In this document: one piece after another, positions 1 to 16,163 of the stretch | Position numbering within the stretch: the first letter of the stretch is position 1 | Layout: each line of letters opens with the position of its first letter | The notes under the pieces: model-generated | The model's database searches: none | What the model saw: the letters and a program-made list of their open reading frames with translations, nothing else | What the model was told of the DNA's origin: nothing | NCBI GenBank assembly: GCA_041661405.1 | Contig: JBAZUL010000004.1 | Span: forward strand, 15,309-79,308 | Direction of reading: 5' to 3' | Length of the DNA: 64,000 nucleotides | From: Patescibacteria group bacterium | GTDB taxonomy: Bacteria; Patescibacteriota; Patescibacteriia; Patescibacteriales; JBAZCA01 | Made by a program: the position numbers and the translations under genes

Positions 1-2
1 CC

Positions 3-3000
3 TTGACATGCACAGGCTTTTTTATGCTGAGAGGAATTGGCTACGGCACCTTTGCCGCTCTAGAGCGGGGAAAAGGCGAGTGGGATAAATATTCCAGATC
101 AGCTTTTAAAGCCAGAAAAGACGAAGGCGAGCAGGCCGGCGACTGGAAAAGCGCGTATAACGAAGTTTCAGCGGAAAAAATGAAAGCTGTGTTAAGAGGA
201 ACAACCGTTAACGCCGCCCGGGAAACCTACAATGAAATAATACACGGAAGAAAAGAGGGAAAGCTAGGCGCGGAAGAAATGAAAAAAAAGCTTGAATTTG
301 AAAAAGCGGAAATGGAAAGGCTGGAAAAAGATGGAGCAGGCCATTTTGGCAAAGCCTGGCATAAAATTAAAATGCGCTCGCCTGAATATCTGGCGAGATT
401 GCGGGGACTGGGAACCGTCGCCCGGGCTTTTGGCATTGGAGGTGTGTCTTACATGGCTTACGCTACCGAAGGCGCTTCTTTAGTCCAGCCATACAATCAG
501 CTCATAGACAGTATAGAACAACATAGAGTCTTAGATACGGCTGGACAAAACATTGTTGGCGGAGTTGACCGGACTATAAAATTATTTGATCTGGAGGAAT
601 GGCAAAAGCGGGTCGATTTGGTTAGCCAGAGAGCCAGCGGCCATACGCTGAGTGAAAATTTCGCCAAGCTGAGGAATTCCTGGCAGGAAATGGGAGTGGC
701 TTATGCCGGAGAAAAGCCGGAAGCATTAGCGAGAGCTGAGGAGGAATATTTTAGATGCGAAGACAATATTAAGCGCCTGGAAGAATCATATAACAATTTT
801 AAAAAAGATCTCTCAGTAAGCGAAAAGGATTATCTTGACGCAACAAAAAAATTAGCGGGCACCGACCCGTCCAGCCCTGAATACGCCAAAGCCAAGGCGG
901 ATGCTGACGCGAAAGAAGAAAAATTTGATGCTTTAAAGGAGCAGGAAGAAGGGACTGAAAAAATTTATGAAGGAAAAAAACCGTTTTACGAAAAGTTGTT
1001 AAAATCGTCTAAATCCGAGTTGGAAGCTGAAAGTAAGAAAGTTACGGGCGGCGAACCGGTTTCTCCCGGCGCGCCGGAAGCCGAGACTCCTGAAATTCCA
1101 GTTTCTGCCGCCCCGTCCAACGCGGAAACCATTCCGCCTCCTGATACTTCGGCTCAAGTCTCCGCTAATAAAGCTCCTGCGGAAGCAACGTCCGCTCCTG
1201 CTTCTAAAGAGGAAGTTTTGCCGGTTCCGCCGGATTCTTCAGCGCCGCAAAAAGAAATTTTAGAAAAATACGGGTTGGATTTAAAAGAACAGCCGTCTCC
1301 GGAAAAAGTTAAAGAATTTGAGCAAATTTACAAAGCGCTCTCTGAAGAGAGAAAATTAACGGCCAGTCAGTCAAAAGAGGTTATGGCTTTGTATTATGGC
1401 GGTGACGCAAATACATTTTCAGGCGAACACTTATTAAAAGTATCGGAACTCGCCAAAGGCAGTAAGGGACTGGACGCGGAGTCATTAGGAAGGATCGCCA
1501 ATGTTTTAGACGAGGAAACGGTCAACCAGCTGGAATATATGCTTGACGAAAAAAACAGGATAACCGGCGCGGGCAATCAAAAAAAACTAAGGGCGGCAAT
1601 ATTGGAAAATTTTTTAAAGACAGGAAATATTAATGATTCACTCGCTACTGTTTACGATGGCGAGGGGGTTGAACATGGGTTAAGAAGATTGATTGAGGCA
1701 AGCCCCAATGAATACGGTTTTAAAAAAGATTTGGTGAACGATTTTGGCGGAAATAAAGGTAAATTTTTAAAAGCTTTGCGGGATTATTCGGGCAAGGAAG
1801 CGCACCGGCTGGCCATTAACGGCGGATTGGCTGAAATCCAGGGTAAAGGCAAAATGAAAGAATTAAGAATTAAAGAAGCTAATAAATATTCAATCAGCGC
1901 TTATGCCGATTATAATAATGAGGGTGAACCGGAAAATGTTAAAGTACGAGTATTGGAACTGGAGAAAGCGGGCGATTACCGGAATTATAAAACAATAGCG
2001 GTAGCGAGAAATGGCGAGATTTACGACGGTAACGAGGAAGTGATGAAAAAGTATGATAAAAAAAGCCTGGTTGAGGCTTTAAAAGGCGAAAAGATAGTTA
2101 ACGAGCCCAGGTCGGAACAGACGAAAAAATCAGCAATATTGGGAGAAAAAAAACCGGAGAAAAGCCAAACTGCCTCCGAGGCTGATAAACCGGTCGTGCT
2201 GGAAGAAGCCGGCAAAAAAGAAGTAGAAGCGAAACAGCGGGCCGCTATTAAAGAAGAATTGAAAAAAGCGGAAGATCAGGAGAGAGCCGAAGCCCGGAAA
2301 ATATTGCCGGAAGAGAAAAAAATAATAAGGGCAGGATCAAGACAAGCCGAAATCCAAAAAGATATACAGGAGGCGGCGGAAGAATTAGGGATTACGGACA
2401 GGGCAAAGGAAATTAATGCCCGGATTAGAATGAGGGAAGCGGAGGCGGCCGGGCAGGCTGGATTAAAAGAACCCGCGGCGCTTAAAGAAGAAACCATAAG
2501 TCCGGCGGATGCGATAAGGGCGGACGATTATTATTATGATGACCATCACGAAGCTATCGCAGATCAGAACGAAGCGTTGCCTGAGGCGAAAGTTGAACCC
2601 GGGCACGGGCATGAAACCGCGAAAACGAGCGAGACGGAAATAAAGGATAATAACGAGCGCGATGTTTTAAGGCATTTTAATATTAATTCGGGGCATTACG
2701 AAAAAATTAAAGACATGACCGCGGCCGAATTCGCCGAACTCATAAGACAGCGGGACGCCGGAGAAAAAGTAAAAGTCCTCTATAAAAGCGGATTCTGGCC
2801 CTGGAACGCGAAGGAAAGGAAAGCTGAGATGCTGGAACAGACGCACCTTAAAGATTTCATATTTTTCCATAAAGCCGAAACGAGCGGGATGACGGTTGAA
2901 GAAGTTTTAAGGAATTACGGGGTAAGCCGGGGCGGAAGGATTGCTTCGGCAGGATTGGGAAGCTCAGGAGCTAGAACTAGAGCGGGGATTGAAGACTTAA

Positions 3001-3545
3001 CACAAGGAAGGGATAGTTGGAAAATTCAAGAATCCGGAGGCCAGCCGGTTGCTCCTCAGCCGAAAAATTTGGATGGCGGCCAGTCAATAAAGCCTGGCGT
3101 TGAAATAATAGAACTTGACGCTCTATCTCCTGAGACTGGAAAGGAAATCCCGGATATCTCGAGACTTTTTTACAGCCCGGAAGGAAAACCGCTTGACCGA
3201 CCCGAAATTATTGCCAGGGCGGTTAAGGAAAGGGAAGCGACGATTGATGATGTTTTTAGCTATTACTCGAAAGAGACCGGATTAAAAGCCGGATCAAAAT
3301 CATATATAAGAGCCAAAACAGATTTTGTTAATTATATAAACATAAAAGGTTCTGAAAACGCAGAATTAAACGGCAACCGGGCGATTAACGCCTATAAAAG
3401 AATGGGAAAATATCTTGAAAAACTTCCGGAAGCGACGGGCTCAAGCAATATTGATTATGTTGATTTAGATAAATTAGGCGTTGATACGCGAGGCAAGACC
3501 CGGGCCTTAAATCCGTCGCCGGATCTTCCATTACCGAGATATTAG
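3..3545 (+). CDS. Large Lys/Glu/Ala/Pro-rich hypothetical protein (low-complexity, coiled-coil-like); 5' end may lie outside the window
   Basis: Open frame from the window edge to TAG at 3543-3545 (1180 codons in the ORF track). There is no upstream in-frame stop, and the first ATG is at 24. A hairpin plus T-run terminator follows. No family recognised. Confidence 0.6.
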   Translation: MTCTGFFMLRGIGYGTFAALERGKGEWDKYSRSAFKARKDEGEQAGDWKSAYNEVSAEKMKAVLRGTTVNAARETYNEIIHGRKEGKLGAEEMKKKLEFEKAEMERLEKDGAGHFGKAWHKIKMRSPEYLARLRGLGTVARAFGIGGVSYMAYATEGASLVQPYNQLIDSIEQHRVLDTAGQNIVGGVDRTIKLFDLEEWQKRVDLVSQRASGHTLSENFAKLRNSWQEMGVAYAGEKPEALARAEEEYFRCEDNIKRLEESYNNFKKDLSVSEKDYLDATKKLAGTDPSSPEYAKAKADADAKEEKFDALKEQEEGTEKIYEGKKPFYEKLLKSSKSELEAESKKVTGGEPVSPGAPEAETPEIPVSAAPSNAETIPPPDTSAQVSANKAPAEATSAPASKEEVLPVPPDSSAPQKEILEKYGLDLKEQPSPEKVKEFEQIYKALSEERKLTASQSKEVMALYYGGDANTFSGEHLLKVSELAKGSKGLDAESLGRIANVLDEETVNQLEYMLDEKNRITGAGNQKKLRAAILENFLKTGNINDSLATVYDGEGVEHGLRRLIEASPNEYGFKKDLVNDFGGNKGKFLKALRDYSGKEAHRLAINGGLAEIQGKGKMKELRIKEANKYSISAYADYNNEGEPENVKVRVLELEKAGDYRNYKTIAVARNGEIYDGNEEVMKKYDKKSLVEALKGEKIVNEPRSEQTKKSAILGEKKPEKSQTASEADKPVVLEEAGKKEVEAKQRAAIKEELKKAEDQERAEARKILPEEKKIIRAGSRQAEIQKDIQEAAEELGITDRAKEINARIRMREAEAAGQAGLKEPAALKEETISPADAIRADDYYYDDHHEAIADQNEALPEAKVEPGHGHETAKTSETEIKDNNERDVLRHFNINSGHYEKIKDMTAAEFAELIRQRDAGEKVKVLYKSGFWPWNAKERKAEMLEQTHLKDFIFFHKAETSGMTVEEVLRNYGVSRGGRIASAGLGSSGARTRAGIEDLTQGRDSWKIQESGGQPVAPQPKNLDGGQSIKPGVEIIELDALSPETGKEIPDISRLFYSPEGKPLDRPEIIARAVKEREATIDDVFSYYSKETGLKAGSKSYIRAKTDFVNYINIKGSENAELNGNRAINAYKRMGKYLEKLPEATGSSNIDYVDLDKLGVDTRGKTRALNPSPDLPLPRY

Positions 3546-3568
3546 CTATTTTTATCAAAAAGAAAAAA

Positions 3569-3602
3569 CCCCGAGCGGTGAATTGCTTGGGGTTTTGTTT
3601 TT
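3569..3602 (+). terminator. Rho-independent terminator
   Basis: CCCCGAGC (3569-3576) pairs with GCTTGGGG (3585-3592, one G-U pair), followed by TTTTGTTTTT and preceded by an A-run. Confidence 0.7.
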
Positions 3603-3694
3603 CGGCAGGACGCCCGAGGATGGGCGTTGGATGGATTGGAAAGAACGGGGGAGTGGTCCCGTTGGGAAACGGGACGCGAGGTTGGGCGGGGGGG

Positions 3695-4423
3695 CTACCA
3701 CGTCCCGGTAACACCGGCGATGTTGCTAAGTGCCGGTATGCCAGGACGGCCCTTATAGGATACTTCAACTTCAACTCCTTTCTCCTTGAAGTAATCCTTC
3801 AGGGCACTGGCCCGTTTTTCTGCCTCAGCGTCGGCTTCCGCCTTTGGTTTTTGTGGGTCACTATAGACCGCGATCTCCTCCGGCGTAATTTCTTTCTTTT
3901 CGGCATAGGTAAGCAGGGCATCAGCCTGCTTTTTTTGCCGATCCGAAAGAGAAGTTACTCCCGCCTCGAAAGGCGAGAGAAGCCAACACTTTTTGCCCGG
4001 TTTGGCCAGTTCAAGGCGGGTGGCCGTTGAGCACCCGCCTTTGGCGCATTTTTTGCGGGCAACCGCCCTTTTGGCCTTGCTGGCTGCGAGATCCTTTCCT
4101 ATCGCTGCCACCAACGACTCAAGAGAGTCAAGACGAGAGTCCACCGTGGGCCGCCAGGTTTCCAGGGCGGTTACCCGGGCCTCCAGGTCGGAGGTGGGGG
4201 CGACGAGGGCGGGAGGCGGGGGTGGGGCGAGGGTACCTTCGGCACATTTGCCGTCGGCGCACTCGGCCGGGGCTGGGAGAGCCCCGGTCAAGTAGGGGGA
4301 GGGGGGGACCTCAGAGAGGGGGTGCGCGGGGGCGGCCGGTCCTGAACGCGTTCCAGCGCATCCGGAGAAAATGTTTACTGCAAAAAAAACAAAAAAAACT
4401 GCCAACAGGCTTTTCGTCTTCAT
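3695..4423 (-). CDS. Putative lipoprotein with Pro-rich linker, coiled-coil and weak OmpA-C-like tail (GC-rich islet 1)
   Basis: The ORF track gives 3695-4525. The internal ATG at 4423 has an AGGAG 5 nt upstream and yields MKTKSLLAVFFVFFAVNIFSGCAG (signal peptide plus lipobox Cys). The tail AEKRASALKDYFKEKGVEVEVSYKG resembles the OmpA C-terminal motif only loosely. Confidence 0.6.
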   Translation of the reverse strand: MKTKSLLAVFFVFFAVNIFSGCAGTRSGPAAPAHPLSEVPPSPYLTGALPAPAECADGKCAEGTLAPPPPPALVAPTSDLEARVTALETWRPTVDSRLDSLESLVAAIGKDLAASKAKRAVARKKCAKGGCSTATRLELAKPGKKCWLLSPFEAGVTSLSDRQKKQADALLTYAEKKEITPEEIAVYSDPQKPKAEADAEAEKRASALKDYFKEKGVEVEVSYKGRPGIPALSNIAGVTGTW

Positions 4424-4648
4424 AATATCTCCTTTCTTGAGAATTGAAGACAGATTTTTGTTTGCGAGGGCGCTACCGCTGGCCGAAAAAACAGGCGGGC
4501 CGTCCTCATGAACGAAAAAACACACTATCCCTCAATCAAGAAATAATATTTCGCTAATATTGCTTAATTTACTCTTAATGAAGAGTTAATATTATTAGCC
4601 TGATCAAGAGATAGTGGGTATATGCCAATTTTAAAGAGCGAACTGGCT

Positions 4649-4708
4649 ACTTTAGCAGATATTGATGAGAATGTCAAGGTTGACAAAAATATGAAAAATT
4701 GTTAAAGT
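4649..4708. promoter_or_regulatory. Back-to-back divergent sigma70-like promoters
   Basis: Plus strand: TTGACA (4680-4685), 17-nt spacer, TAAAGT (4703-4708). Minus strand: TTGACA (4677-4672), 17-nt spacer, TAAAGT (4654-4649). The two -35 boxes form TGTCAAGGTTGACA. This lies in the only AT-rich stretch of the islet. Confidence 0.5.
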
Positions 4709-4906
4709 CGTGTGTTAATTGAGGGTAAATTTTCTCTCTAAATTAGATTCATATTTATAATTATTATGAATATGGGCATGCGTTAGGGAGGAAAAATTCG
4801 TTCTTTGAAAATGAATTCCTTAGACAATTTTGCGGGGAATTTTTTGTCCATAAAATTGTCTAAGGAATTCGAAATATCAACCCATCCACCCCTTTTGGAG
4901 GAAGCC

Positions 4907-6097
4907 ATGTTTAAGAATTTTTGTCGGCAATTGACAGTCGCGTTCGCCGTGTTTTTTTGCGGTTTGAGCGTGACAGTGGCCGCCCTTGCGGCCGATCCGT
5001 CAACCTCAGCCCCCGGCCAGTTTGGCTGGGGCGCGGCCATAATGCTCGTGTACACCGTAGTTGTTTTAATCCCTCTGGTCGGTTGCATTTTGTACCGGCT
5101 CTGGAGGGATTGGCCTCGGGGCGCGCCTGCCCCGAAGGCCGAAACGGCTAAAGAGAAGCCAGCCTGCACCTTTCGGGCGTGGGCCATGGCTTTGGCGGCG
5201 CTGTTCCTATCGACCGCCTGTGCAGGGAACCCCTACCGGATGCCTGTCCGGGAGTGGGCATACGCCCCTCCGTCGCAGGAAGTGGCATCCGCCCCGAAGT
5301 CGTCCCAGCAGGCGGCCAGTAGCAAACCGAAAGGCTACTATTTGGTCGTTTTTGACCGCTGGGACTCGCCTTGGCCCGAAGCGGGGGTGTTTTGGTATAT
5401 TCACTTCGGGCCGAGTCTGTGGCAGGAAAACTACGGCATCATTGCAATGGATGCCGACGGGGACGGACGCTTGGAAGCGCTTGTGCCCGAACAATTCTTT
5501 TGTTACAGATTCGTCTTGGTCTCTCATGCCGGCACGTTTTATTCGCCGGCCGGAGAGATTAAAGCACCCGTTGGTTCAGACGGGTGCCGCAGGGACCTCA
5601 AAATCCCTGAAGATCTGAACCAGCTGGCGCCGTTGGTGTCACCTACGTCTTGTCGGTTCATCTCTTTTGGGAGCGAACTGGACAAGCAGGTGCAACAGCG
5701 GTGGGTCGCGGCGCTTCAGAGATTGGGGTTGTGCAAGCAACTCACCCCGTCTCAAATTGAGGCACTGCGGCGGACGGATCCGGAAATGGCCCACCGGATC
5801 CTGAACGTGGCCGGGAACTTGAGCGCCATTGCGGGGCTCTGGTTCCCGGCTCTTTGGGCCATGGATCCGTTTAGAGCCCTTCGGACTCTAATTGAGTTAA
5901 ATTACGCGGCTCAAAGCGTGCCTAAAAAGCACGTTGACAAGTCCATGTATTTTGACTCAACGGTGTCGCGGTTTGATTACCGCGACCTGCGCCGGAAGGA
6001 GATCTTTCTCCAGAAGGCTCAGGAGTCCGAAGACAGCGGACACCTCGGGTTTTTTTACCGGGTGTTCACCGGCGGAAACGGGTCCGCACCGAAGTAG
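4907..6097 (+). CDS. Hypothetical membrane/secreted protein (GC-rich islet 1)
   Basis: The ORF track gives 4805-6097. The ATG at 4907 is preceded by GGAGG (4897-4901) and gives the signal-like MFKNFCRQLTVAFAVFFCGLSVTVAALAA. A TM segment follows, then a second lipobox-like segment ALFLSTACAG. No family recognised. Confidence 0.55.
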   Translation: MFKNFCRQLTVAFAVFFCGLSVTVAALAADPSTSAPGQFGWGAAIMLVYTVVVLIPLVGCILYRLWRDWPRGAPAPKAETAKEKPACTFRAWAMALAALFLSTACAGNPYRMPVREWAYAPPSQEVASAPKSSQQAASSKPKGYYLVVFDRWDSPWPEAGVFWYIHFGPSLWQENYGIIAMDADGDGRLEALVPEQFFCYRFVLVSHAGTFYSPAGEIKAPVGSDGCRRDLKIPEDLNQLAPLVSPTSCRFISFGSELDKQVQQRWVAALQRLGLCKQLTPSQIEALRRTDPEMAHRILNVAGNLSAIAGLWFPALWAMDPFRALRTLIELNYAAQSVPKKHVDKSMYFDSTVSRFDYRDLRRKEIFLQKAQESEDSGHLGFFYRVFTGGNGSAPK

Positions 6098-6236
6098 AGG
6101 AGAAGTGGGGTGGGTCGGCCGACCAGTAGGCAAGACCGCATAGTGCATGACGCCAGAGACATCGGCGCCTGCCCCGAGCAACACGAACCGCCCGATGCCG
6201 CGAGAGGCACGGGCAAGTCACAAAAAGGAGTCAGAA

Positions 6237-6731
6237 ATGAAAAGGTTGTTGGTAGTTCTGGTGGCCATCTTGGCCGCCGTGGCAATGGCACCCGCCGATC
6301 TTTTGGCGGGGAATTCGGTAACCTGTGCCGGTGGAAAGGTTTCGTATACCGTGGAGTTGCAGTTCATTAGCAACACCCCGGGAAAACGGAACATGGATCC
6401 GGCAACCTGGGAAGGAAAAACCGTTTCATCATTCTCCGCGTCGTTTGACGATCCGGTTGCAACCGGAACAGTCAAGAGTGGGCGCGTCTCCTTCACGGAG
6501 AACGCCACCAACGACCGCGAACGTCGGTTTTTCCGGATTCAGGGCATCCCGGGCTTTGAATGGGCTATCCCAGCCGACGACGGCTGGATGGTGGCTCGGC
6601 AGAGCCAGGGGCGAGTTGATAGTTCCGCGCCTATCAACTGGAGGAAAATCGGGCTGGAATGGATGCCCGGTTGCAAGGAGGTGCCTGACGGCGCGGAATG
6701 GAACCCCTGGGACAACGGGGCTGTGAAATAG
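6237..6731 (+). CDS. Hypothetical secreted protein (GC-rich islet 1)
   Basis: The ORF track gives 6147-6731. The ATG at 6237 is preceded by AAGGAG and gives the signal peptide MKRLLVVLVAILAAVAMAPADLLA. No family recognised. Confidence 0.55.
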   Translation: MKRLLVVLVAILAAVAMAPADLLAGNSVTCAGGKVSYTVELQFISNTPGKRNMDPATWEGKTVSSFSASFDDPVATGTVKSGRVSFTENATNDRERRFFRIQGIPGFEWAIPADDGWMVARQSQGRVDSSAPINWRKIGLEWMPGCKEVPDGAEWNPWDNGAVK

Positions 6732-6840
6732 CCCTCCGATCCAGGTCTTTTGGAGTAAACCTTTTGGGCGGCGGCGCGTATGAGTATGTTTGGATAACTA
6801 CTCTCGCGCCCCGCCCTCATCAATTTTCAATTGTCTAAAC

Positions 6841-6897
6841 CACTGACCTGCCTGCCGGTAGGCAGGTTATCACTGAAGACACTGATTTCACTGATTC
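6841..6897. repeat. Word-plus-palindrome module (CACTGA words around core ACCTGCCTGCCGGTAGGCAGGTT)
   Basis: The 23-mer core at 6846-6868 is identical to 59329-59351. CACTGA words occur at 6841, 6871, 6881 and 6891. Confidence 0.85.
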
Positions 6898-6963
6898 TTA
6901 TTAGCGTTAATTTTTAAAATTTTAGTTTAATACAAAAAATCAAAAAAATAGCGTTTCTGTTTT

Positions 6964-8550
6964 ATGAAAACTTTGACTTTAGAAAAAAATCAAATTTTAT
7001 ATATACTTTTGGCTTTGGCTATGTGTTTTTTATTGCTTTTAGCTTTAGCGCCGGCGGGGATCAGCGTTTCGGTTGCGGCTTTTTTAATACTTGGAATGCT
7101 GGCTTTCAAAAACACGGAAATATTTTTATTTTTTCTTACTATCTATATTCCGCTGGAGCCGTTTCTTTTAAAATTCACGAGCGATGAGATTTATCCTTAT
7201 TTAAGATTATTGAGCGAGGGATTGGTTTTAATTTTGTTTTTAACCGCGATTTTAAAGCATATTAATACTAACGGCTTTAAATATATCCGGACGCCGATTG
7301 ATTTGCCGCTCGCCGTTTTTATCGTTATTACAGCCATATCCGCTCTGGTGAATTTTGAAAATCCGTCATTCTGGGTTATAGGGCTAAGGCAGATTTTCCG
7401 TTATGCGCTTTTATATTACGCCATAATCTATTCCGGCATTTCCCGGGCTGCCGCGAAAAAACTGGTTACGGTTTTAGCGGCGCTTCTCGCCCTGGAAACG
7501 ATAATCGGTTTAAGTCAGGCGATAATCGGGTCAACGGCCGACGCTTTACTCTTGCCCGGCGAACGCCGGGAATTCGGCAACTTAGTCACTCCGGATTATG
7601 TCCGCCAATTCTTATTTTCCGGCGAGAGGATTTTTGCCACCATGGGCCGCTACGACCGGCTGGGGACTTTCCTTAGCTTTGGGCTGATTTTAATCGCCGG
7701 ACTCGCCTATGAATTAAAGAATGAAAGATTAAAAAGAATTTTAAAAACGATTTTTCTTTATTCGCTCTCGGCCTTGGTTTTGACTTATTCGCGGATGTCC
7801 TGGCTCGGACTGGCTTTGGGAATCGGCATAATCGGAATTTTGATAAAAAAAGATAAAAAACTTATATTCGGATTGACCTTGGCTTCAGTCGCTGTCGCCG
7901 GTTATCTTGGCTTGTATTTATTTTTAAACGGCGGAAACGTAAATAATATTTCCAATAAGGCTGACATGCCTCTGGCCGAACGGGCGCTCGCGCTTTTTTC
8001 CGCGAGAGAACTCCGCGACAGCTATTATGGCTATGGCCGGTTATATTTTATAGCCAATACCCCTAAAAAAATCGTCAAAAATAACCCGTTATTCGGGGTG
8101 GGGCTAGGGCAATACGGCGGCGGAGTGGCCGCGGCTCTGGGAAATAACATTGAATACAGGAAGGCCGGACTGCCTTTCGGCATCGGCGGAGAAGCCGGCC
8201 AGATTGATAATAACTGGTTTTCTATTTGGGGGGAATCGGGAACGCTCGGAGTTTTAGCTTTTGGCTGGATTATTGTAAGTTTGTTTATCTTTAGCTATAG
8301 GACGTATAAAAGCGAAAATAACGATTCGTTTAAGAGGGGGCTGTCCTTGGCTATGCTGGGGATTATTCCGGTCATAAGTTTCCAATCATTTTTGGGTCCT
8401 TATTTTGAGGTACGGCCGCTTTCTTATAATTTTTGGCTTTTGGCCGGATTGATGGCCGGATTGGCGTTAAACGAAAGGAACAGAAATATTGAAGAATTAA
8501 CTGTCAACCGATTAACAATGGCTGATAAATTCGCTCATGACAAACAATAA
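6964..8550 (+). CDS. O-antigen ligase / O-antigen polymerase family polytopic membrane protein
   Basis: 528 aa with many TM segments. The TYSRMSWLGLALGIGIIG region is typical of the Wzy_C/O-antigen ligase domain, and the C-terminal loop is glycine-rich. Confidence 0.7.
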   Translation: MKTLTLEKNQILYILLALAMCFLLLLALAPAGISVSVAAFLILGMLAFKNTEIFLFFLTIYIPLEPFLLKFTSDEIYPYLRLLSEGLVLILFLTAILKHINTNGFKYIRTPIDLPLAVFIVITAISALVNFENPSFWVIGLRQIFRYALLYYAIIYSGISRAAAKKLVTVLAALLALETIIGLSQAIIGSTADALLLPGERREFGNLVTPDYVRQFLFSGERIFATMGRYDRLGTFLSFGLILIAGLAYELKNERLKRILKTIFLYSLSALVLTYSRMSWLGLALGIGIIGILIKKDKKLIFGLTLASVAVAGYLGLYLFLNGGNVNNISNKADMPLAERALALFSARELRDSYYGYGRLYFIANTPKKIVKNNPLFGVGLGQYGGGVAAALGNNIEYRKAGLPFGIGGEAGQIDNNWFSIWGESGTLGVLAFGWIIVSLFIFSYRTYKSENNDSFKRGLSLAMLGIIPVISFQSFLGPYFEVRPLSYNFWLLAGLMAGLALNERNRNIEELTVNRLTMADKFAHDKQ

Positions 8551-9514
8551 AGTAAACAAAATAAAAGAAGCAATAATCGCCGTTACTTATCGGTGCAATT
8601 CGCGATGCCGGATGTGTAATATCTGGCAAAGTAAAGAATGGAATGAAATTTCCCCGGAATTGCTCGCGAATTTGCCGAAAAATATTAAAGACGTGAATCT
8701 AACCGGCGGGGAGCCATTTTTGTATTCTGATCTTCCAGGAGCGGTTCGCGCTATTTCCGGCCGCCTGCCAAAGGCGAGGATTATTATTTCCACTAACGGA
8801 TTCTTAACCGGCCGGATTACCGAGGCGATGAAAAAAATTATTAAGATTAAGCCCGATATCGGCGCAGCAGTCTCTCTTGACGGCATTGGCCGGGCTCATG
8901 ACGAAATCCGGGGAATTCCTGGAGGATTTGAAATGGCGTTGACCACCATAAAGGAATTAAAAAAAATCGGGGTTAAACATTTAAAAATCGGATTTACTAT
9001 CGGCGATTATAATTATAAAGAACTGCCGAAAGTGTACGCGCTTTCCAAAGAACTGGGAACCGAATTTACTATCGCTTTGGTTCATTCAAGTGAAAGCTAT
9101 TTTCAAAAAGAAAACGCAACCCATAAAAAGAATGAAATCAGGGAAATACTAGAATGGCTGAAGCATGAAGAACTGAGAAGCTGGTACCCAAAGCGCTGGG
9201 CTCGGGCGTATTTTACTCACGGGTTAATTGAGTTTTTGGATTATGAAAAAAGAATCTTGCCCGATTATTCCGGCCAGCTGAATATTTTCATTGATCCGGC
9301 GGGAAAAATTTTTCCTTGCGATGTTTCCGGCGAAGATTTGGGAAGCCTGGCTGATAATCCCTTAAAATGGCGGTCCATCGGCGTCTGCACGGCCGGAGAA
9401 AAGAGCTGGATGATCTGCACGGCCCGGCAGTCTATGAAAAAACACTGGGTTAAGGCCGGGAGTTGGATAATTTTTAATAAATTCAGGAGTTTAACGGGCG
9501 TGAATCCGGTTTAA
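8537..9514 (+). CDS. Radical SAM protein (unknown substrate) in glycan cluster
   Basis: CNSRCRMC is a CX3CX2C motif near the N-terminus, with TGGEPF nearby and additional C-terminal cysteines. The start overlaps the upstream gene by 14 nt. Confidence 0.75.
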   Translation: MTNNKVNKIKEAIIAVTYRCNSRCRMCNIWQSKEWNEISPELLANLPKNIKDVNLTGGEPFLYSDLPGAVRAISGRLPKARIIISTNGFLTGRITEAMKKIIKIKPDIGAAVSLDGIGRAHDEIRGIPGGFEMALTTIKELKKIGVKHLKIGFTIGDYNYKELPKVYALSKELGTEFTIALVHSSESYFQKENATHKKNEIREILEWLKHEELRSWYPKRWARAYFTHGLIEFLDYEKRILPDYSGQLNIFIDPAGKIFPCDVSGEDLGSLADNPLKWRSIGVCTAGEKSWMICTARQSMKKHWVKAGSWIIFNKFRSLTGVNPV

Positions 9515-9553
9515 TAAATTTTTAATGATTACGAAATAAGCTGAACAATTAAA

Positions 9554-10855
9554 ATGAAAATACTGCAAGTAAATAAATTCCATTATTTAAAAGGCGGGGC
9601 CGAGCGCTACTATCTTGAACTTGCCCGGATGTTGCGCCGGAACGCACACCAAGTCTCGGAATTTTCCATGGAAGATCCGGCCAATTTGACGAGCGCTTAT
9701 TCTAGGTATTTTGTTTCCAATTTAAGCAAAGAGCCAGGATTAAAAAATTGGTTTTTTTATCCCTTTAGGGTTATCTACGGTATTGAGGCAAAAAAGAAAT
9801 TTGAAAAGCTGATAATAGAATTCCGTCCGGATGTGATCCATATCCATAATATTTATCATCAGATTTCGCCGTCAATACTTGGGGCGGCCAAGAAGCACGG
9901 AGTTCCGGTTATAATGCATTTGCACGACTACAAGCTGGTCTGTCCGAACGCCAAGATGTTTTGTAAAGGAAAAGTATGTGAAAAGTGTAAAGGCGGGAAA
10001 TTTTATAACTGTTTTTTAAACCGCTGCATTGATAATTCAGCGGCTAAAAGCCTTATCGCGACCATAGAGATGTATTTTCACCGCTTGGCCGGTTTGTATG
10101 AGAAAAATGTTAATTTATATATCGCTCCTTCAAATTTTTTAAGAGATAAAATAATTGAGTGGGGAATTGATGCCGAAAAAATCATTTATTTTCCGTATTT
10201 CGTTGACGAGATTGAGTCTGGCGATAATGAGAAAGGAAATAATAAAAATAAAGGAAATGATTATTTTTTGTACTATGGAAGATTGAGCGAGGAAAAAGGA
10301 GTTGGCGTAATAATTGACGCGCTGGCCTTGATGGACAAAAAACCAAAACTGCTGATAGTAGGAACCGGACCGATGGAATCTCTATTAAGAGATAAAACGA
10401 AGGAGCTTGATCTTCGGGATCATGTGGAATTTACAGGCTACAAAAGCGGACAGGAACTCGGTGAAATTATCAAGAAAGCGAAAGCCGTTATTATTCCTTC
10501 GGTCTGGTATGAAAATATGCCCTTTACCGTTACTGAAGCCATGCTGGCCGGAAAAATCGTAATCGCCTCCGATATCGGCGGCATAAGCGAGTTGGTTCAG
10601 GGCGGAAAATCAGGTAAGTTATTTAAGCCCGGGTCGGCCGGTGATTTGGCCGGAAAAATTTCAGCGGTTTATAATAATGAAGATGCCGCCGAAAAAACAG
10701 GTTTTTTCGGATCAGATTATATAAAAAACAGCTTTAACGGGGCTGATCATCTTGCGAGAATAGAAAAAATTTACGCTGAAATTGTTGATATAAAAAACCG
10801 AACGGTCGGGAGACGGCCGGGAGAAGGGTTGACAAAACCGCTAAAAATCAGCTAA
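9554..10855 (+). CDS. Glycosyltransferase family 4 (GT-B) with Cys-rich insert
   Basis: The N-terminus MKILQVNKFHYLKGGAERY and the C-terminal TEAMLAGKIVIASDIGGISELV (EX7E-type region) fit GT4. There is a Cys cluster, CPNAKMFCKGKVCEKCKGGKFYNC. Confidence 0.8.
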   Translation: MKILQVNKFHYLKGGAERYYLELARMLRRNAHQVSEFSMEDPANLTSAYSRYFVSNLSKEPGLKNWFFYPFRVIYGIEAKKKFEKLIIEFRPDVIHIHNIYHQISPSILGAAKKHGVPVIMHLHDYKLVCPNAKMFCKGKVCEKCKGGKFYNCFLNRCIDNSAAKSLIATIEMYFHRLAGLYEKNVNLYIAPSNFLRDKIIEWGIDAEKIIYFPYFVDEIESGDNEKGNNKNKGNDYFLYYGRLSEEKGVGVIIDALALMDKKPKLLIVGTGPMESLLRDKTKELDLRDHVEFTGYKSGQELGEIIKKAKAVIIPSVWYENMPFTVTEAMLAGKIVIASDIGGISELVQGGKSGKLFKPGSAGDLAGKISAVYNNEDAAEKTGFFGSDYIKNSFNGADHLARIEKIYAEIVDIKNRTVGRRPGEGLTKPLKIS

Positions 10856-10891
10856 GATAATAAGCCTTTAAGTAATTAAAACATCTCGTTT

Positions 10892-12187
10892 ATGAAAAGA
10901 TTCAAACAATGGAGTCAATGGAGTTCAGCCCTTATTTTCGCGTCCTTAATGGGAGTTTTTCTGGTTGCTCCCGCGCCAGCGGCTCTGGCTAAAATTAAGC
11001 CTTATTATTCGGGCAAAGCCGCGAGTTATAACGGTAATCTTATAATCGGAACCGCCGATATGGGAGAAATTGAGATTTTCAGGCTGGACAGCGGCGAACT
11101 TGTAAAAACCGCGACCATCCAGCCGGAATGGGATCGCTATTCGCGAACCGCGATTTTGTATGATTTGGCATTTTCCGAGGAAAACGGAAAATTGTATCTT
11201 TACGCGGTAACCGGAAACGAGCTTTTAAAATACGATATTACCGAAGTCCGCCTGCCGATTTTGACTAAACGTTCGGCCAATACTTCCTGGGACTGGTTTA
11301 CCGGCGTTGGAACGTTAGGGGATAAAATATATACCGTGGGAAAATTCGGAATAAAAATTTGGACTCCGGACATGGTTGTTATCAATAGCTATGCCATAAA
11401 CAATCCTGCTCCAGCCAATCTATCCTTTGATCAAGGCGGCAATTACATTTTTAGCATCTTGAATAAAGAAGGAAAAATTGACATTTATGATACCAATACC
11501 CGGCAGGTGGTTTCTTCCATCCCTTTCCGAGCCGATAACATTTATAACCGCGGATTATACACCAGCGGCGGTTATGTATATTTTATTGACGACTCGGCCG
11601 TTAAAAAAACCGATTTTTCCGGAAAGTCCGGCGCCAATTTCGTTTTTAAAAGTAAGAATGGCTATGATGTCCGGCCTTCGGCTGATCCGGCTTATTTCTA
11701 CTTTACCGACGGTGTCGGAGTGGTAAAAGCGAGAACGAGCGACCTTGAGCCGGTTAAATGGGCCTGGACTACGAATATCGGTCAAAACTGCTGGGCGATG
11801 GGATTGAGAATTGTGAAAGCCGGCGCGAGCGAGTACGCGGTTGTATTTAATAACAGCAATATTCTTGTCTTAGACGGCGATCTTAAGCTGGTTACTTCAT
11901 ACGAAAGCCAGGAAGACTTGATGCAGTTGGGCGAATCTTTAGCGCTTTCGGTAGATAAAGCTCGGGCGCCGTCCGGAGCAATGATCTCTCTTCACGGCCA
12001 GGGGTACGGATTTAACGAACCTCTGGATATTTTTTGGGCTGACACAAAATACGAAATCAGGGCGGATGACCAGGGAAGATTCCGGGTATTTTTGGAAGTA
12101 CCGAAGGCTAAGCCCGGGGGGCGCGATATCACCGTGACCGGAAAATTCACCGGAGCTAAATACAGTCTGGGCTTTCAGGTTGAATAA
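10892..12187 (+). CDS. Secreted repeat protein (beta-propeller-like) with C-terminal Ig-like domain
   Basis: A signal peptide ends in APAALA. Repeated motifs of the type GxxIYxxxxxGIxIxD recur. No enzymatic motif recognised. Confidence 0.5.
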   Translation: MKRFKQWSQWSSALIFASLMGVFLVAPAPAALAKIKPYYSGKAASYNGNLIIGTADMGEIEIFRLDSGELVKTATIQPEWDRYSRTAILYDLAFSEENGKLYLYAVTGNELLKYDITEVRLPILTKRSANTSWDWFTGVGTLGDKIYTVGKFGIKIWTPDMVVINSYAINNPAPANLSFDQGGNYIFSILNKEGKIDIYDTNTRQVVSSIPFRADNIYNRGLYTSGGYVYFIDDSAVKKTDFSGKSGANFVFKSKNGYDVRPSADPAYFYFTDGVGVVKARTSDLEPVKWAWTTNIGQNCWAMGLRIVKAGASEYAVVFNNSNILVLDGDLKLVTSYESQEDLMQLGESLALSVDKARAPSGAMISLHGQGYGFNEPLDIFWADTKYEIRADDQGRFRVFLEVPKAKPGGRDITVTGKFTGAKYSLGFQVE

Positions 12188-12238
12188 TCGGGTTTAGATA
12201 TTCTTGTCGGCGAGGCATAGACAGACCTAGTCAAAAAT

Positions 12239-13420
12239 ATGAAAATAGTTTTTATCGGGCAAAAAGGAATACCGGCCGTTTCCGGAGGAGTGGAAAAGCA
12301 TGTGGAAGAATTATCCGTCCGCTTGGTTAAGCTTGGCCATGAAGTTTCGGTTTACGTCCGGCCGAATTATACCGATCCTGGTATAAAGGATTTTAAAGGG
12401 GTAAATCTTATCTCACTGCCGAGCGTTCCGACCAAACGTCTGGACGCGATTACCCATACTTTTTTTTCCTGCCTGCACTTGATTTTTTTCAAGCGGAGAA
12501 CCGATATTGTCCATTTCCATTCTATCGGCCCGTCGTCGCTCATTGGCCTTGTAAAAATTTTTCTGCCCAGGACAAAGGTGATTACTACATTTCATACCCA
12601 GTGCTATTTCCATAAAAAATGGAGCCGGCTTGACGGCGCTTACCTTAAATTCGGCGAATGGGCCTGCCATAAATTCGCTGACGAGGTTATTGTTGTGTCA
12701 AAAAATCTGAAAAATTATTCTGAAAAAAAATACGGCCGAAAAGTAACCTATATACCCAACGGAGCTGAAATAAAAGAGAATTCGCCGGTCACGGAAATTA
12801 CTAGCCTCGGCCTCCAAAAAGAAGGTTATATCCTTGCGGTTTCCCGTCTTATCCGTCATAAAGGAGTTCATCATCTGATCAGAGCCTATGGCCGAATCAG
12901 CACGGACGTGAAGTTGGTGATTGTCGGCGATGGATTTTATACTGATAATTATGTGAGCGAACTGAAAAAACAGGCCGCCGGAAACCCGAATATTATTTTC
13001 ACCGGCCGGCAATCAGGCGCGGTTTTAGATGAACTTTTCTCTAATGCCTTGTTTTTTGTCCAGCCATCCGAGTCCGAGGGTCTTTCAATCGCTCTTTTGG
13101 AAGCCATGTCTTTCGGCTTGCCGGTTCTTACTTCGGACATTGCCGAGAACCTGGAGGCGGCTGAAGGAGCGGGTTATGCCTTTAAAAATAGAGATGCCGA
13201 AGATTTAGAAAAAAAACTTGAGTTTTTACTGAACCCGGCTAACCGGAAAGCCATGAAAGCGCGCGGAGAAAAAAATCGGGAAAGAATAAGGGATCATTAC
13301 AGTTGGGATAAAATCGCCGAGACTACTGATGAATTATACGCGACTACCGGAGGGCGCAGGGAATTAAAGAATTTTTTTCCGTTGAGGATCGCGAGAAAGC
13401 TATTGTTTTTTTACCGGTAG
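12239..13420 (+). CDS. Glycosyltransferase family 4
   Basis: MKIVFIGQKGIPAVSGGVEKHVEEL at the N-terminus and SESEGLSIALLEAMSFGLPVLTSDI in the C-terminal half. Confidence 0.8.
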   Translation: MKIVFIGQKGIPAVSGGVEKHVEELSVRLVKLGHEVSVYVRPNYTDPGIKDFKGVNLISLPSVPTKRLDAITHTFFSCLHLIFFKRRTDIVHFHSIGPSSLIGLVKIFLPRTKVITTFHTQCYFHKKWSRLDGAYLKFGEWACHKFADEVIVVSKNLKNYSEKKYGRKVTYIPNGAEIKENSPVTEITSLGLQKEGYILAVSRLIRHKGVHHLIRAYGRISTDVKLVIVGDGFYTDNYVSELKKQAAGNPNIIFTGRQSGAVLDELFSNALFFVQPSESEGLSIALLEAMSFGLPVLTSDIAENLEAAEGAGYAFKNRDAEDLEKKLEFLLNPANRKAMKARGEKNRERIRDHYSWDKIAETTDELYATTGGRRELKNFFPLRIARKLLFFYR

Positions 13421-13587
13421 TAGCTGTTCTTTTTAAATAACTTGAATATCGGGTTGCGGCCGTAAAATTTATGGCCATGGCCCGGTGTTCAAGGTTTTTT
13501 GCATAGGTACCGGAAAGGTCGGTTGCCAGCCAACGAGTTGGTTTGGCGAGGCACCCGAGATGTCAATCGTTTAAAGGAGGTTCTTAG

Positions 13588-14217
13588 ATGTTACGGAAAG
13601 TGTTTTTTGCTTTTTTGGCAATCGTTGGCCTGAGCGTTCTTTGCTCGGTCTATGTTGGCTCGGTAATTTTGGAGACGGCATGGGCCGACGAGCGGCCCAT
13701 AAAGATCGAGCCAGTTGACACAACCGGCGCCGATGTTTATCTTTTGGTTGGTCAAATGTGCAAATACGGGGATGGCCTGTGGTATAAGCAGGTCATATTG
13801 CTAAATGGGACACCTGCCCCGCCGGTAAACCACCCGATATATGCATACTTGGCCACACTGACCCTGCCGGCGGACGGGCAGGGAACAATCGGGGAGATCC
13901 GCTCCCCGAAAACGTTCGCTTTCACAAAAAACCAAACTGCTCTCATTCCCCGGTGCCAGATCATCGGCACCGAAGCCCGGGTCAATTTCGCTCAACAGTG
14001 GTTCCAAGGGAGGAAACTTCCTCTGAAAATCACGACCCGGGCAACGGAAGTGAAAGGGCGAGGAACGGTGGGTATCCTGGTCTACCCGCCGCATTCGTTT
14101 GACTACGCTTTTGTTCCAATTTCTGACCAGGAAATTGAGGCGAACGACTTTCGAATGTTTGACAACATCTGGAACTTGATCGCCTCTGAGCACCTCAAGG
14201 CCGCGACTGGTAACTAG
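13588..14217 (+). CDS. Hypothetical secreted protein (GC-rich islet 2)
   Basis: AAAGGAGG lies upstream of the ATG. The N-terminal signal is MLRKVFFAFLAIVGLSVLCSV. The gene is GC-rich relative to its neighbours. No family recognised. Confidence 0.55.
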   Translation: MLRKVFFAFLAIVGLSVLCSVYVGSVILETAWADERPIKIEPVDTTGADVYLLVGQMCKYGDGLWYKQVILLNGTPAPPVNHPIYAYLATLTLPADGQGTIGEIRSPKTFAFTKNQTALIPRCQIIGTEARVNFAQQWFQGRKLPLKITTRATEVKGRGTVGILVYPPHSFDYAFVPISDQEIEANDFRMFDNIWNLIASEHLKAATGN

Positions 14218-14545
14218 GTCAAGGCTTTGAGGCTGCCCCGTCGGCAAGCGCATCTGTTTGCCACGCTGACGCCCGGCTCACCCGGCCGCGGCTCAACCCG
14301 ACTTTGCCGTCGGGGCGGAAATGTTTTTTCAAAGTCAATTAGTTGCCCTCGTCCGTTTTGGCGGCCGTGGCGTCCAGCGAGGACGTCCTACAGCCAAGCC
14401 CCAGCCGAAGCGGACAGGGCTTACCAAACCCTCCTTTAGCCAGTCAGCGAATCTCGGAGCCCCGGATTCAAAGACAATTTTTACGGCTTTTAGGAGGGTG
14501 TTTTATTTTTGGGAGGTTTTATGAGGTTGTTTTTTCTCTTAAATA

Positions 14546-14554
14546 TGCTATAAT
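14546..14554 (+). promoter_or_regulatory. Extended -10 element (TGcTATAAT) 7 nt before the ATG at 14561
   Basis: TGCTATAAT at 14546-14554. No SD-like sequence precedes the ATG, so a leaderless transcript is possible. Confidence 0.35.
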
Positions 14555-14560
14555 TTTATT

Positions 14561-14764
14561 ATGTATAATTGGTCAGTTAATACAACTGAATTAAAAAAAG
14601 ACAAGAAAAAATATGCTGTTTGGCGCTTGGAGCAAATGGTTAATTTTGGTTTGGGCGGAAAGAAAATCAACCGGGAAGAAATAAAAAAATATTGGAAGAT
14701 ACTTAAAATGGACCATAATAAAAAGCGGTATTTAAAGATGATTTTATGGCCCAAACAATCCTGA
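14561..14764 (+). CDS. Small conserved-looking protein upstream of and overlapping the AbiEii-type gene (candidate antitoxin partner)
   Basis: 67 codons. It overlaps the downstream start by 19 nt. Composition is basic and Trp-rich (WRLEQMVNFGLGGKKI). It lacks the length expected of a canonical AbiEi. Confidence 0.45.
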   Translation: MYNWSVNTTELKKDKKKYAVWRLEQMVNFGLGGKKINREEIKKYWKILKMDHNKKRYLKMILWPKQS

Positions 14765-15405
14765 GCGCTAATCAAGTTAAAGTTTTGGAGGCAATCAGCA
14801 AAGACGCGGAAATTTGCCGAATTTTTTATTTGACCGGCGGAACGGCTTTGGCGGAGTATTATCTGCAACATCGCTTATCCGAAGACCTGGATTTTTTTTC
14901 GGAAAAAGAATTCGATATTATGGCGATAAATGTTTTTTTTGCGAAGAATAGAAAAGCATTGGGAATAAAAAAGATTGATTTTCAAAAAAGCTTTAACCGC
15001 AATTTGATTTTTCTGCATTTAAAAGATGAGATAATTAAAACTGAGTTTACCTATTTTCCTTTTCCGAGGATTGAAAAAAAAGCTAAGATGAATAAGCTGT
15101 TTGTGGACAGCCTCGGAGATATTGCTGTGAATAAATTGTTTACCATATATCAAAAACCGCGTTCCCGGGATTTTATTGATTTATATTTGATAATAAAGAA
15201 AACCGGCTGGAAGATGAATGACTTGATTAAAAAAACAAAAATTAAGTTTGACTGGCATATTGATTATTTGCAATTAGGCAGCCAATTTATATTGGCTAAA
15301 GAAGTTAAAGATTATCCGCGGATGATCTTTAAACTTGAAAATAAAAAGTGGCAAAATTTTTTTATTAATGAAGCTAAAGTTTTCAGCGGAAAGATTATTG
15401 ATTAG
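14746..15405 (+). CDS. Nucleotidyltransferase, AbiEii/AbiGii toxin family (DUF1814-like)
   Basis: FYLTGGTALAEYYLQHRLSEDLDFF matches the family's N-terminal NTase motif (GG...DLDF). 219 aa. Confidence 0.7.
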   Translation: MAQTILSANQVKVLEAISKDAEICRIFYLTGGTALAEYYLQHRLSEDLDFFSEKEFDIMAINVFFAKNRKALGIKKIDFQKSFNRNLIFLHLKDEIIKTEFTYFPFPRIEKKAKMNKLFVDSLGDIAVNKLFTIYQKPRSRDFIDLYLIIKKTGWKMNDLIKKTKIKFDWHIDYLQLGSQFILAKEVKDYPRMIFKLENKKWQNFFINEAKVFSGKIID

Positions 15406-15550
15406 ATTATTCCAGTCAACCAGCTCCCTCGCGGGCGTTTTTTTGCGTTTTATTTTCGGGAGTTTTTTAAAATTGAGGACTGACATGATGTAGTTATGTC
15501 AGATTTTGGTTAAAAATAACTAAAAAAAGAAATAAACAGAAGTTAAAAGC

Positions 15551-16102
15551 ATGATCCTCCGTATTAATACAATAAAAAACAATTCCACCGAAATTGAAAT
15601 CGGATTGCGCGACAAGGCGGGGAAGTGGATTGTAAAAAAATATGTTAAGGCGGACCGCAAACAGGCGGAGAAGCTCCTGCCCTTGATTGAGAAGGTTGTG
15701 GCTGGCGCAGGCGGAAAGAAGGGCAAGACGGATCTAAAACAGAAGTTTAAAGTTAAAAGTATCCCGTCTCAATCTCGGCGAGCCGAGGCGGAAAAGTTAA
15801 AAGTTTTTGATTTTATTGAATCCATTGAAGTCGTGAATCAGGGCGGGACATTCACCTCTCTGCGCATCGGCGTAGCGACCGCGAACGCGCTGGGGTATGC
15901 GCTAAATGTTCCAGTTGTTGGAGTTAGTGAATTTGAAAAAGTGGGTATAAAGTCCAGGCCGGATGATGCGCATTGTGAAAAGTTCAAAGTTACCTTGCCT
16001 GCCGACAGGCAGGAAAGTCCAAAGTCCAAAGTTAATTTTGATATCGTCGCGCCGGAATACGACAAAGAACCGAATATTACGCTCAAAGTTCATAACCCGT
16101 AA
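15551..16102 (+). CDS. tsaB: TsaB-like (t6A biosynthesis, YeaZ family) mini-protein carrying two repeat-derived inserts
   Basis: NQGGTFTSLRIGVATANALGYALNVPVVGV matches the TsaB GPGSFTGLRIG...P..GV core. The N-terminus MILRINT resembles the family start. Confidence 0.55.
   Translation: MILRINTIKNNSTEIEIGLRDKAGKWIVKKYVKADRKQAEKLLPLIEKVVAGAGGKKGKTDLKQKFKVKSIPSQSRRAEAEKLKVFDFIESIEVVNQGGTFTSLRIGVATANALGYALNVPVVGVSEFEKVGIKSRPDDAHCEKFKVTLPADRQESPKSKVNFDIVAPEYDKEPNITLKVHNP
15737..15808 (+). repeat. In-frame repeat module A inside tsaB-like CDS
   Basis: The palindromic core ATCCCGTCTCAATCTCGGCGAGCCGAGGCGGA (15761-15792) is flanked by a perfect 12-nt direct repeat AAAGTTAAAAGT (15749-15760 and 15793-15804). 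The core recurs at 21719-21754. Confidence 0.85.
15977..16034 (+). repeat. In-frame repeat module B inside tsaB-like CDS
   Basis: The core TGCCTGCCGACAGGCA (about 15996-16013) is a variant of the 6846/59329 core. It is flanked by AAAGTTCAAAGTT / AAAGTCCAAAGTCCAAAGTT words, and the direct repeat CAAAGTTA occurs at 15985 and 16027. Confidence 0.8.
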
Positions 16103-16163
16103 CTCGTAATTTGAGCTTGTGTGAATTAAAGGGTGATAATTAAGATTTGAGATACGAGTTACG
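16098..16163 (+). repeat. Hairpin whose left arm contains the tsaB-like stop codon
   Basis: CGTAACTCGTA (16098-16108, including TAA at 16100-16102) pairs perfectly with TACGAGTTACG (16153-16163). TTTGAG words lie inside. Confidence 0.75.

Follow-up and report, generated by a model that had tools for sequence, protein, structure and literature searches.

We conclude that the GC-rich islet at positions 3603 to 6830 of a Patescibacteria group bacterium contig segment (the window: 64,000 nucleotides of contig JBAZUL010000004.1, assembly GCA_041661405.1) encodes uncharacterized families of envelope proteins and is probably a variable surface locus of the replacement type. The islet carries three genes for exported proteins: P1, a lipoprotein gene on the minus strand (3695 to 4423, 242 amino acids), and, divergently on the plus strand, P2 (4907 to 6097, 396 amino acids) and P3 (6237 to 6731, 164 amino acids, with a signal peptide). 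On balance, we consider it probable that the islet is native to the Patescibacteria chromosome, where it lies at the 5' edge of a conserved cell envelope glycan locus, and neither a mobile island nor an assembly artifact. The initial annotation of this DNA had described an abrupt composition change here and three exported-protein genes with good Shine-Dalgarno sites, and both descriptions hold; the sites are AAGGAG for P1, GGAGG for P2, and AAGGAG for P3, each at the proper distance from its start. It had also raised the idea of a host-interaction cassette, which is compatible with the surface location and rapid evolution of the products.

The placement of P2 and P3 in a glycan locus is based on conserved gene order. 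A word-indexed search with the islet proteins returned only the proteins themselves, and none of the three reaches the threshold of a curated family. An exhaustive HMMER search of 1.84 billion representative proteins recovered five homologues of P2, of 282 to 306 amino acids and 29 to 41% identity, all from low-GC sequences and from five other uncultivated genomes. At all five loci the next gene, on the same strand, encodes a secreted protein of 204 to 266 amino acids with no Pfam match. Within the limits of contig reach, this pair is followed by a Wzy_C gene in L007 to L010, a radical SAM gene in L007 to L009, and a GT4 gene in L007 and L008; the L011 contig stops after the P2-P3-like pair. 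The order is that of the window, where P2 and P3 are followed on the plus strand by genes for a Wzy_C (O-antigen ligase/polymerase-like) membrane protein (6964 to 8550), a radical SAM enzyme (8537 to 9514), and a GT4 glycosyltransferase (9554 to 10855), all recognized by Pfam and of normal GC content. P3 belongs, by profile comparison, to the family encoded directly after the P2 homologues, of which it is a short member: hhalign aligned it to the profile of the five small syntenic proteins over 141 columns (probability 96.6%, E value of 5.3e-10), and the family has the motifs ER.(F/Y)F, W.AIP, and (V/I)P(N/D)G in common. The description of the islet proteins as orphans of no recognizable family was therefore partly right: no curated threshold is reached, but P2 and P3 have homologous families and P1 has sub-threshold OmpA-like matches.

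P2 and P3 are far more diverged than the genes beside them. Identities to the window are 48 to 57% for the Wzy protein, 44 to 52% for the radical SAM enzyme, and 42% for the GT4 enzyme, against 27 to 37% for P2 and about 22% for P3. The ranking of the loci is similar across genes, with L007 the most distant for P2 and the radical SAM enzyme and narrowly the lowest for Wzy and GT4. Given the conserved order together with this high divergence, we regard P2 and P3 as fast-evolving yet ancestral members of the cluster.

The islet is nevertheless the strongest compositional outlier of the window. Its GC content is 0.550, against 0.449 for the remaining window, and the hand counts of the initial annotation were exact (45 G+C in the 60 nucleotides at 4141 to 4200, 22 at 7141 to 7200). 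Among 251 sliding windows of 1.5 kb, both GC content (0.583, z of 3.7) and tetranucleotide distance (z of 4.1) peak at 5001 to 6500. GC content at third codon positions (GC3) is 0.61 in P1, 0.68 in P2, and 0.68 in P3, compared with 0.492 ± 0.047 in 37 other open reading frames. The boundary features are also present as described: a bidirectional intrinsic terminator hairpin at 3565 to 3596, found by terminator scan and RNA folding and common to P1 and the gene upstream of it, and a near-perfect palindrome at 6846 to 6867, ACCTGCCTGCCGGTAGGCAGGT, which marks the return to AT-rich sequence and, having no T-tract, is not a canonical terminator. The islet is bipartite, with an AT-rich stretch of 483 nucleotides (4424 to 4906, GC content of 0.35) between two GC-rich halves.

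To partition the excess, the amino acid sequence of each gene was recoded with background codon usage, and P1 to P3 were compared with 36 background genes. The recoded prediction for P1 to P3 is a GC content of 0.536 to 0.558, the observed value is 0.581 to 0.591, and the background is 0.457. The amino acid-driven excess is +0.08 to +0.10 (background standard deviation of 0.025, maximum of 0.053) and the synonymous excess is +0.032 to +0.045 (background standard deviation of 0.017, maximum of 0.027), and both components lie above all 36 background genes. Protein composition, with its abundance of Ala, Gly, Pro, and Arg, thus accounts for about two-thirds or more of the excess, and the remainder is synonymous.

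Such an islet could be a classical horizontal acquisition, in which an outside donor of high GC content recently contributed the 3.2-kb block, or both of its GC-rich halves, and the sequence has not yet ameliorated. This explanation draws on the GC and tetranucleotide deviation, on an excess that reaches synonymous sites and non-coding parts, on the sharp boundaries at the terminator and the palindrome, and on the absence of P1 from the five syntenic loci. We nonetheless consider it unlikely. P2 and P3 are found where the ancestral gene order places them, and they rank in divergence as their neighbors do. Their sole homologues in the set of 1.84 billion representatives have a low GC content and share no more than 41% identity, and no close or GC-rich homologue of the islet genes occurs in the collections searched; the search for a donor lineage suggested by the initial annotation produced no candidate, and a one-off acquisition from a high-GC donor, also proposed there, is not supported for P2 and P3. 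The AT-rich promoter region sits in the middle of the supposed block. Finally, a second, deeply diverged allele of P1, described below, is GC-richer still (GC3 of 0.75), so that two separate imports would be needed. In addition, the P2 and P3 orthologues of L007, L009, and L010 exceed their own Wzy and radical SAM neighbors by 0.04 to 0.10 in GC content; those of L008 show no such excess. The GC-richer second allele, the GC-rich orthologues, and the absence of a donor together make it less likely that the islet was imported once, and recently, from an unrelated source of high GC content.

Nor does the islet carry the usual attributes of mobility. As the initial annotation had stated, it contains no integrase, tRNA, or flanking repeat: no open reading frame of at least 120 amino acids in the window matches integrase, transposase, or reverse transcriptase families, the sole tRNA in the window is a tRNA-Ala at 45358, and no direct repeats above chance flank the islet. 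No phage or plasmid DNA matches to the islet were found, nor relatives on viral contigs, and the PHROG search gave no hit. The islet resembles horizontally acquired islands in its deviant composition, sharp boundaries, and exported products of unknown function, but it differs from them in having no integrase, tRNA, repeats, or detectable donor and in that two of its three genes lie in conserved synteny. Its distribution is not sporadic either: in five related loci the P2-P3 pair is found at the corresponding site, and P1 alone is missing there. The islet proteins are deposited from a 91,395-bp contig of a Patescibacteria group bacterium. The gene content of the window is otherwise that of a core chromosome, including MraZ, MraW, a penicillin-binding protein, a Mur ligase, AlaRS, ribosomal proteins, RpoA, CTP synthase, ClpB, and RF1.

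A second explanation would make the GC excess purely a by-product of protein composition and of selection on these exported proteins, with no recombination or transfer involved. The partition above favors it to the extent that most of the excess is predicted from amino acids under background codon usage. Gly, Ala, Arg, and Pro (GARP) residues make up 0.32 to 0.36 of P1 to P3 and 0.23 to 0.28 of neighboring proteins, and at four-fold sites the gap is small for P1 and P3 (GC content of 0.65 to 0.66, against 0.61 to 0.62 in neighbors). However, the synonymous excess lies above every background gene, and the transcribed non-coding parts of the islet are GC-rich as well (0.68 for the P1 3' untranslated region [UTR] and 0.63 for the P2-P3 spacer, compared with 0.22 to 0.48 in other intergenic sequence), which makes protein composition alone insufficient. 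The homologous proteins of other genomes have GARP contents of 0.19 to 0.23; since they manage with far less, the composition of the islet proteins is not dictated by their fold. We therefore regard a purely compositional origin as improbable too.

The data fit a cause linked to the locus itself, with recombination-associated processes the preferred candidates. Recombination is reported to correlate positively with gene GC content across bacteria (PMC4450053). The excess could have arisen by repeated allele replacement from GC-richer relatives, by GC-biased gene conversion, or by both.

The locus does bear signs of recombination. The only homologue of P1, the second allele (P0003), has 54 to 59% amino acid identity to it, depending on the alignment, and is carried by short contigs of two assemblies, ENA ERZ27249449 and JGI 3300014208, both of which contain the window form as well; these are the two P1 forms found among the matches listed. 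Read from the P2 leader toward the upstream gene, the haplotypes are 97 to 100% identical from 4782 to 4470 (the promoters and the start of the leader), 30 to 80% identical from 4470 to 3678 (P1 and its Shine-Dalgarno region), 90 to 100% identical from 3677 to 3560 (the hairpins of the P1 3' UTR and the terminator), 43 to 67% identical from 3558 to 3400 (the last ~37 codons of the 1465-amino-acid upstream protein), and 100% identical below 3390, within that same protein. The rate of synonymous change between the P1 alleles is saturated (dS of ~1.3), with a dN of 0.35 and a dN/dS of ~0.27. Deeply diverged alleles inside near-identical flanks, in the same communities, point to gene-sized replacement at the locus by homologous recombination. 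The two P1 forms thus appear to be old functional alleles that were brought into a young common background by recombination. Diverged alleles, conserved flanks, and saturated synonymous sites are what a replacement-type surface locus displays, provided that the two forms are, as we infer, alleles and not paralogues. The hypervariable C-terminal tail of the upstream protein (plus strand, 3400 to 3545, its last ~37 codons) has a normal GC content of 0.44; it forms a second variable block, and the conserved 3' UTR and terminator lie between this block and P1.

Other sources of variation were considered and set aside. Hypermutation in situ is ruled out by the saturated dS, the dN/dS of ~0.27, and the indels. 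P1 is not the target of a diversity-generating retroelement, as no reverse transcriptase family is matched by the window open reading frames of at least 120 amino acids and the changes comprise indels and all substitution types along the whole gene. An integron cassette is rejected on the lack of an integrase match among open reading frames of at least 120 amino acids and on the 3' hairpin element being present in a single copy in the window.

The two forms could alternatively be paralogues within one genome, on a duplicated segment with identical flanks that was collapsed in assembly. Both forms do occur together in each of the two assemblies that yield either, on short, bubble-like contigs that carry no linkage information. 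Yet the 64-kb window contains no second copy of P1, and contigs of 91 kb and 17 kb are continuous with one form. The twin JGI contigs (L005 and L002) share both end points, at window positions 3269 and 4710, as expected of an assembly bubble, and scattered single-nucleotide differences in the flanks fit strain haplotypes. Patescibacteria genomes are small and have few duplications. We consider paralogy doubtful, and quite improbable, relative to the allelic interpretation.

Comparison with replacement flexible genomic islands is instructive here. Homologous recombination is reported to replace islands for exposed structures (PMC4033161). P1 resembles such islands in having one locus, near-identical flanks, and deeply diverged alleles with saturated synonymous sites; its product is envelope exposed, and genes for glycan biosynthesis are clustered beside it, as there. 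It departs from these islands in that the swapped unit is a single gene of ~1 kb plus the tail of a neighboring gene, and no multigene cluster; in that a non-coding element of ~120 nucleotides in the middle of the locus stays conserved; and in that the region is GC-richer, not GC-poorer, than the genome, with two alleles seen.

The weakest alternative, a chimeric contig or misjoin in the metagenome-assembled genome (MAG) at 3600 and/or 6830, has nothing but the abrupt composition change in its favor and hardly merits credence. The second P1 allele, too, is GC-rich and set between the same AT-rich flanks, the genes within the islet have their conserved partners 3' of it, and the boundaries recur in independent assemblies, which excludes a chimeric join for practical purposes. 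Four contigs from three assemblies each span at least one islet boundary at 99.97 to 100% identity: one from Logan SRR18595301 (window 1 to 14264, 99.986%), one from a different run, Logan SRR6484324 (5963 to 13413, 99.987%), and two from ENA ERZ27249449 (a megahit contig at 3251 to 5704, 100%, and one at 6143 to 18550, 99.968%). A fifth, from JGI 3300014208 (L005, window 3269 to 4710, 100%), crosses the left boundary. The chimeric join entertained in the initial annotation can thus be discarded. The ENA megahit contigs end at 5704, in the 3' part of P2, and at 6143, in the P2-P3 spacer, where there may be further strain variation or low coverage.

Several observations weigh against a native glycan locus with recombination as the source of its composition. 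Synonymous GC excess, GC-rich non-coding sequence, and sharp boundaries are also the signature of a foreign segment, and +0.13 over 3 kb exceeds the effect sizes typically reported for GC-biased conversion. None of the five syntenic loci has a gene corresponding to P1, so P1 could be a lineage-specific foreign insertion. Only two P1 haplotypes were seen, and they are putative alleles. The functions of P1 to P3 are proposed from sub-threshold domain matches and gene neighborhood only. Lastly, the only contig of the cluster deposited as Patescibacteria is that of the window itself, L008 being deposited as 'bacterium'. We still favor the reading of the islet as native sequence.

The implications reach beyond this genome. 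In a MAG, a sudden change in GC content that is unaccompanied by mobility genes does not have to signal contamination or foreign DNA. Two small uncharacterized families are defined, a lipoprotein of ~300 amino acids and its secreted partner, both tied to a Wzy_C/radical SAM/GT4 envelope cluster in uncultivated, probably Patescibacteria, genomes. Strain-level dimorphism of a surface lipoprotein is documented in Patescibacteria, a group believed to live by way of contacts at the cell surface. If it is true that recombination drives the GC excess, the islet would be a clear natural case of GC-biased conversion in a streamlined genome.

P1 is the best characterized of the three proteins by domain architecture. 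Its signal peptide ends in the cysteine of a lipobox (FSGC, residues 19 to 22), as expected of a bacterial lipoprotein, and that of the second allele ends in FAGC. There follow a Pro/Ala-rich linker, a short coiled coil, a Cys-rich segment, and a C-terminal OmpA-like segment of ~70 residues. The Pfam OmpA model (PF00691) matches P1 at 16.4 bits (E value of 0.011), below its gathering cutoff of 27.2. In a PDB profile search, the top 20 matches include Pal, MotY, and PA0833 (PA0833-PD), at E values of 0.36 to 2.2, as well as an 'outer membrane associated protein'. NCBIfam gave weak matches of P1 to MotY and of the second allele to YiaD and OmpA (E values of 0.004 to 0.04), and the OmpA match of the second allele is graded 'weak' in precomputed annotation. 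P1 has no match that reaches threshold in curated families and no relatives in species-representative genomes. From the sub-threshold domain matches, lipobox, linker, and coiled coil taken together, P1 is a probable Pal-like peptidoglycan-binding lipoprotein.

Like the OmpA_C-like lipoproteins Pal, YiaD, and MotY (PF00691), P1 combines an N-terminal lipobox with a C-terminal OmpA-like segment of ~70 residues, and it has the pattern F..G...L...(I/V).(V/A)Y.D...RA...(L/V)...GV, in which the Asp and Arg are invariant across both alleles. These residues, D189 and R204, stand in a YxD...(K/A)RA context, and weak alignments suggest their equivalence to the conserved Asp and Arg with which Pal binds the peptidoglycan stem peptide. 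Unlike Pal-type proteins, P1 shows no evident N..LS motif, all its matches are sub-threshold, and it adds the Pro/Ala linker, the coiled coil, and the Cys-rich segment. The group to which the genome belongs is thought to lack an outer membrane. P1 would be lipid anchored to the membrane and bind peptidoglycan through a degenerate OmpA-like domain, with the coiled coil as a spacer. At the five syntenic loci, where P1 has no counterpart, the gene before the P2 homologue encodes a PKD-rich surface protein instead; the 1465-amino-acid protein upstream of P1 shows no homology to these PKD-rich proteins.

P2, too, is a lipoprotein, and its family, of ~300 amino acids, is rare. Four of its five homologues start with a clear lipoprotein signal, the fifth (P0007) being apparently truncated at its N terminus, and the lipobox Cys is one of twelve invariant columns across the six sequences. 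It aligns with C105 of P2, which qualifies P2 as a lipoprotein although the distance from its predicted start to this Cys is unusually long. A 93-amino-acid N-terminal extension (4907 to 5185), unique to P2 within the family and comprising a signal-like and a transmembrane segment, is what places the lipobox Cys at residue 105. Public gene calls give P2 428 and 430 amino acids, with upstream starts that fall within the leader hairpin; the GGAGG-ATG start at 4907 is more likely than either. For P3, public calls are 126, 164, and 178 amino acids, and the 126-amino-acid NCBI call has no signal peptide. A conserved DADGDG loop in P2 suggests, on the motif only, calcium binding.

The AlphaFold2 (AF2) model of P2, from the six-sequence alignment, has a mean predicted local distance difference test score (pLDDT) of 59, with most of the core (residues 140 to 270) at 70 to 92. 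This partly confident model predicts a beta-sandwich at residues ~143 to 253 followed by a helical domain. A Foldseek comparison with the PDB returned nothing significant, only generic beta-sandwich likenesses at E values of at least 0.76, and the single-sequence AF2 model of P3 is unusable (pLDDT of 41.5). The profile and structure comparisons called for earlier thus succeeded in part: hhalign identified the family of P3, but the P2 fold has no significant PDB match and there is no usable P3 model.

The genomic surroundings suggest roles for P2 and P3. Their locus resembles Wzy_C/GT4 loci for surface glycan, O-antigen, or protein O-glycosylation in that the pair is conserved beside Wzy_C, radical SAM, and GT4 genes, and a Wzx-like flippase and further glycosyltransferases occur elsewhere in the window. 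Polymerase, ligase, and oligosaccharyltransferase roles are all possible for the Wzy_C protein of the window. Neither the P2 nor the P3 family has been described as part of such a system, and we found nothing specific in the literature on this cluster in Patescibacteria. Judging by sequence and neighborhood, P2 and P3 may act outside the membrane, as partners or substrates of Wzy_C/glycosyltransferase machinery for the synthesis or attachment of a surface glycan. The rapid divergence of P2 and P3 and the dimorphism of P1 could reflect selection on exposed structures by phages or by the host cells of an epibiont.

Conserved non-coding elements separate the variable parts. The 3' UTR of P1 (3603 to 3694, minus strand, GC content of 0.68) has stem-loops at 3656 to 3675 and 3610 to 3627, and with the terminator it makes a segment of ~120 nucleotides that folds as two hairpins plus the terminator (z of -5.56). 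The UTR element, of ~90 nucleotides, is near-invariant between the haplotypes although the coding sequence on either side is heavily diverged. It has no Rfam match (for the P2 leader, likewise, only chance hairpin matches were found), occurs once in the window, and has no copy in species-representative genomes. On the far side of P1, the divergent control region (4424 to 4906) contains two back-to-back predicted promoters of the form TTGACA-17-TAAAGT with a TG element, at 4680 to 4708 on the plus strand and 4677 to 4649 on the minus strand. Their -35 boxes together make a 14-nucleotide palindrome, TGTCAAGGTTGACA. The predicted P2 leader of ~190 nucleotides (4715 to 4906) folds with a z of -6.94 relative to shuffled sequences and contains a perfect 19-bp inverted repeat (4813 to 4831 and 4852 to 4870); another hairpin of the leader sequesters an AGGGAGG motif. 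The promoter palindrome and the structured leader may form a regulatory element.

More speculatively, and with little expectation that all of it is correct, the P1 locus might be a dedicated site of cassette exchange and a hotspot of GC-biased conversion, with P2 and P3 as undescribed extracellular parts of a lineage-specific, Wzy_C-dependent surface glycosylation system. Patescibacteria populations would then swap whole surface lipoprotein genes, together with the tail of the giant neighboring protein, between two fixed homology anchors: the GC-rich 3' UTR hairpins on one side and the promoter region on the other, both of them invariant. Intense GC-biased gene conversion would have left the local GC enrichment as its footprint.

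Other parts of the window also encode surface or otherwise unusual proteins. At the far end of the glycan cluster, 13588 to 14500 holds a second GC-rich gene for an exported protein (209 amino acids, GC3 of 0.62, with a signal peptide), for which there is no family match. This gene is followed by 283 nucleotides of non-coding sequence with a GC content of 0.60 and then by a sharp fall to 0.28. An AbiEii toxin gene lies beyond this end of the cluster (14746 to 15405). The second strongest tetranucleotide outlier (z of up to 3.5) is a minus-strand gene at 60129 to 63899 for a 1256-amino-acid protein with CarboxypepD_reg repeats. It has a GC content of 0.51, also 0.51 at second codon positions, and is probably another compositionally unusual surface protein. 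Lastly, a gene of the RhuM 'virulence protein' family (40483 to 41292, Pfam E value of 3e-87) adjoins a transglutaminase-like gene in housekeeping surroundings.

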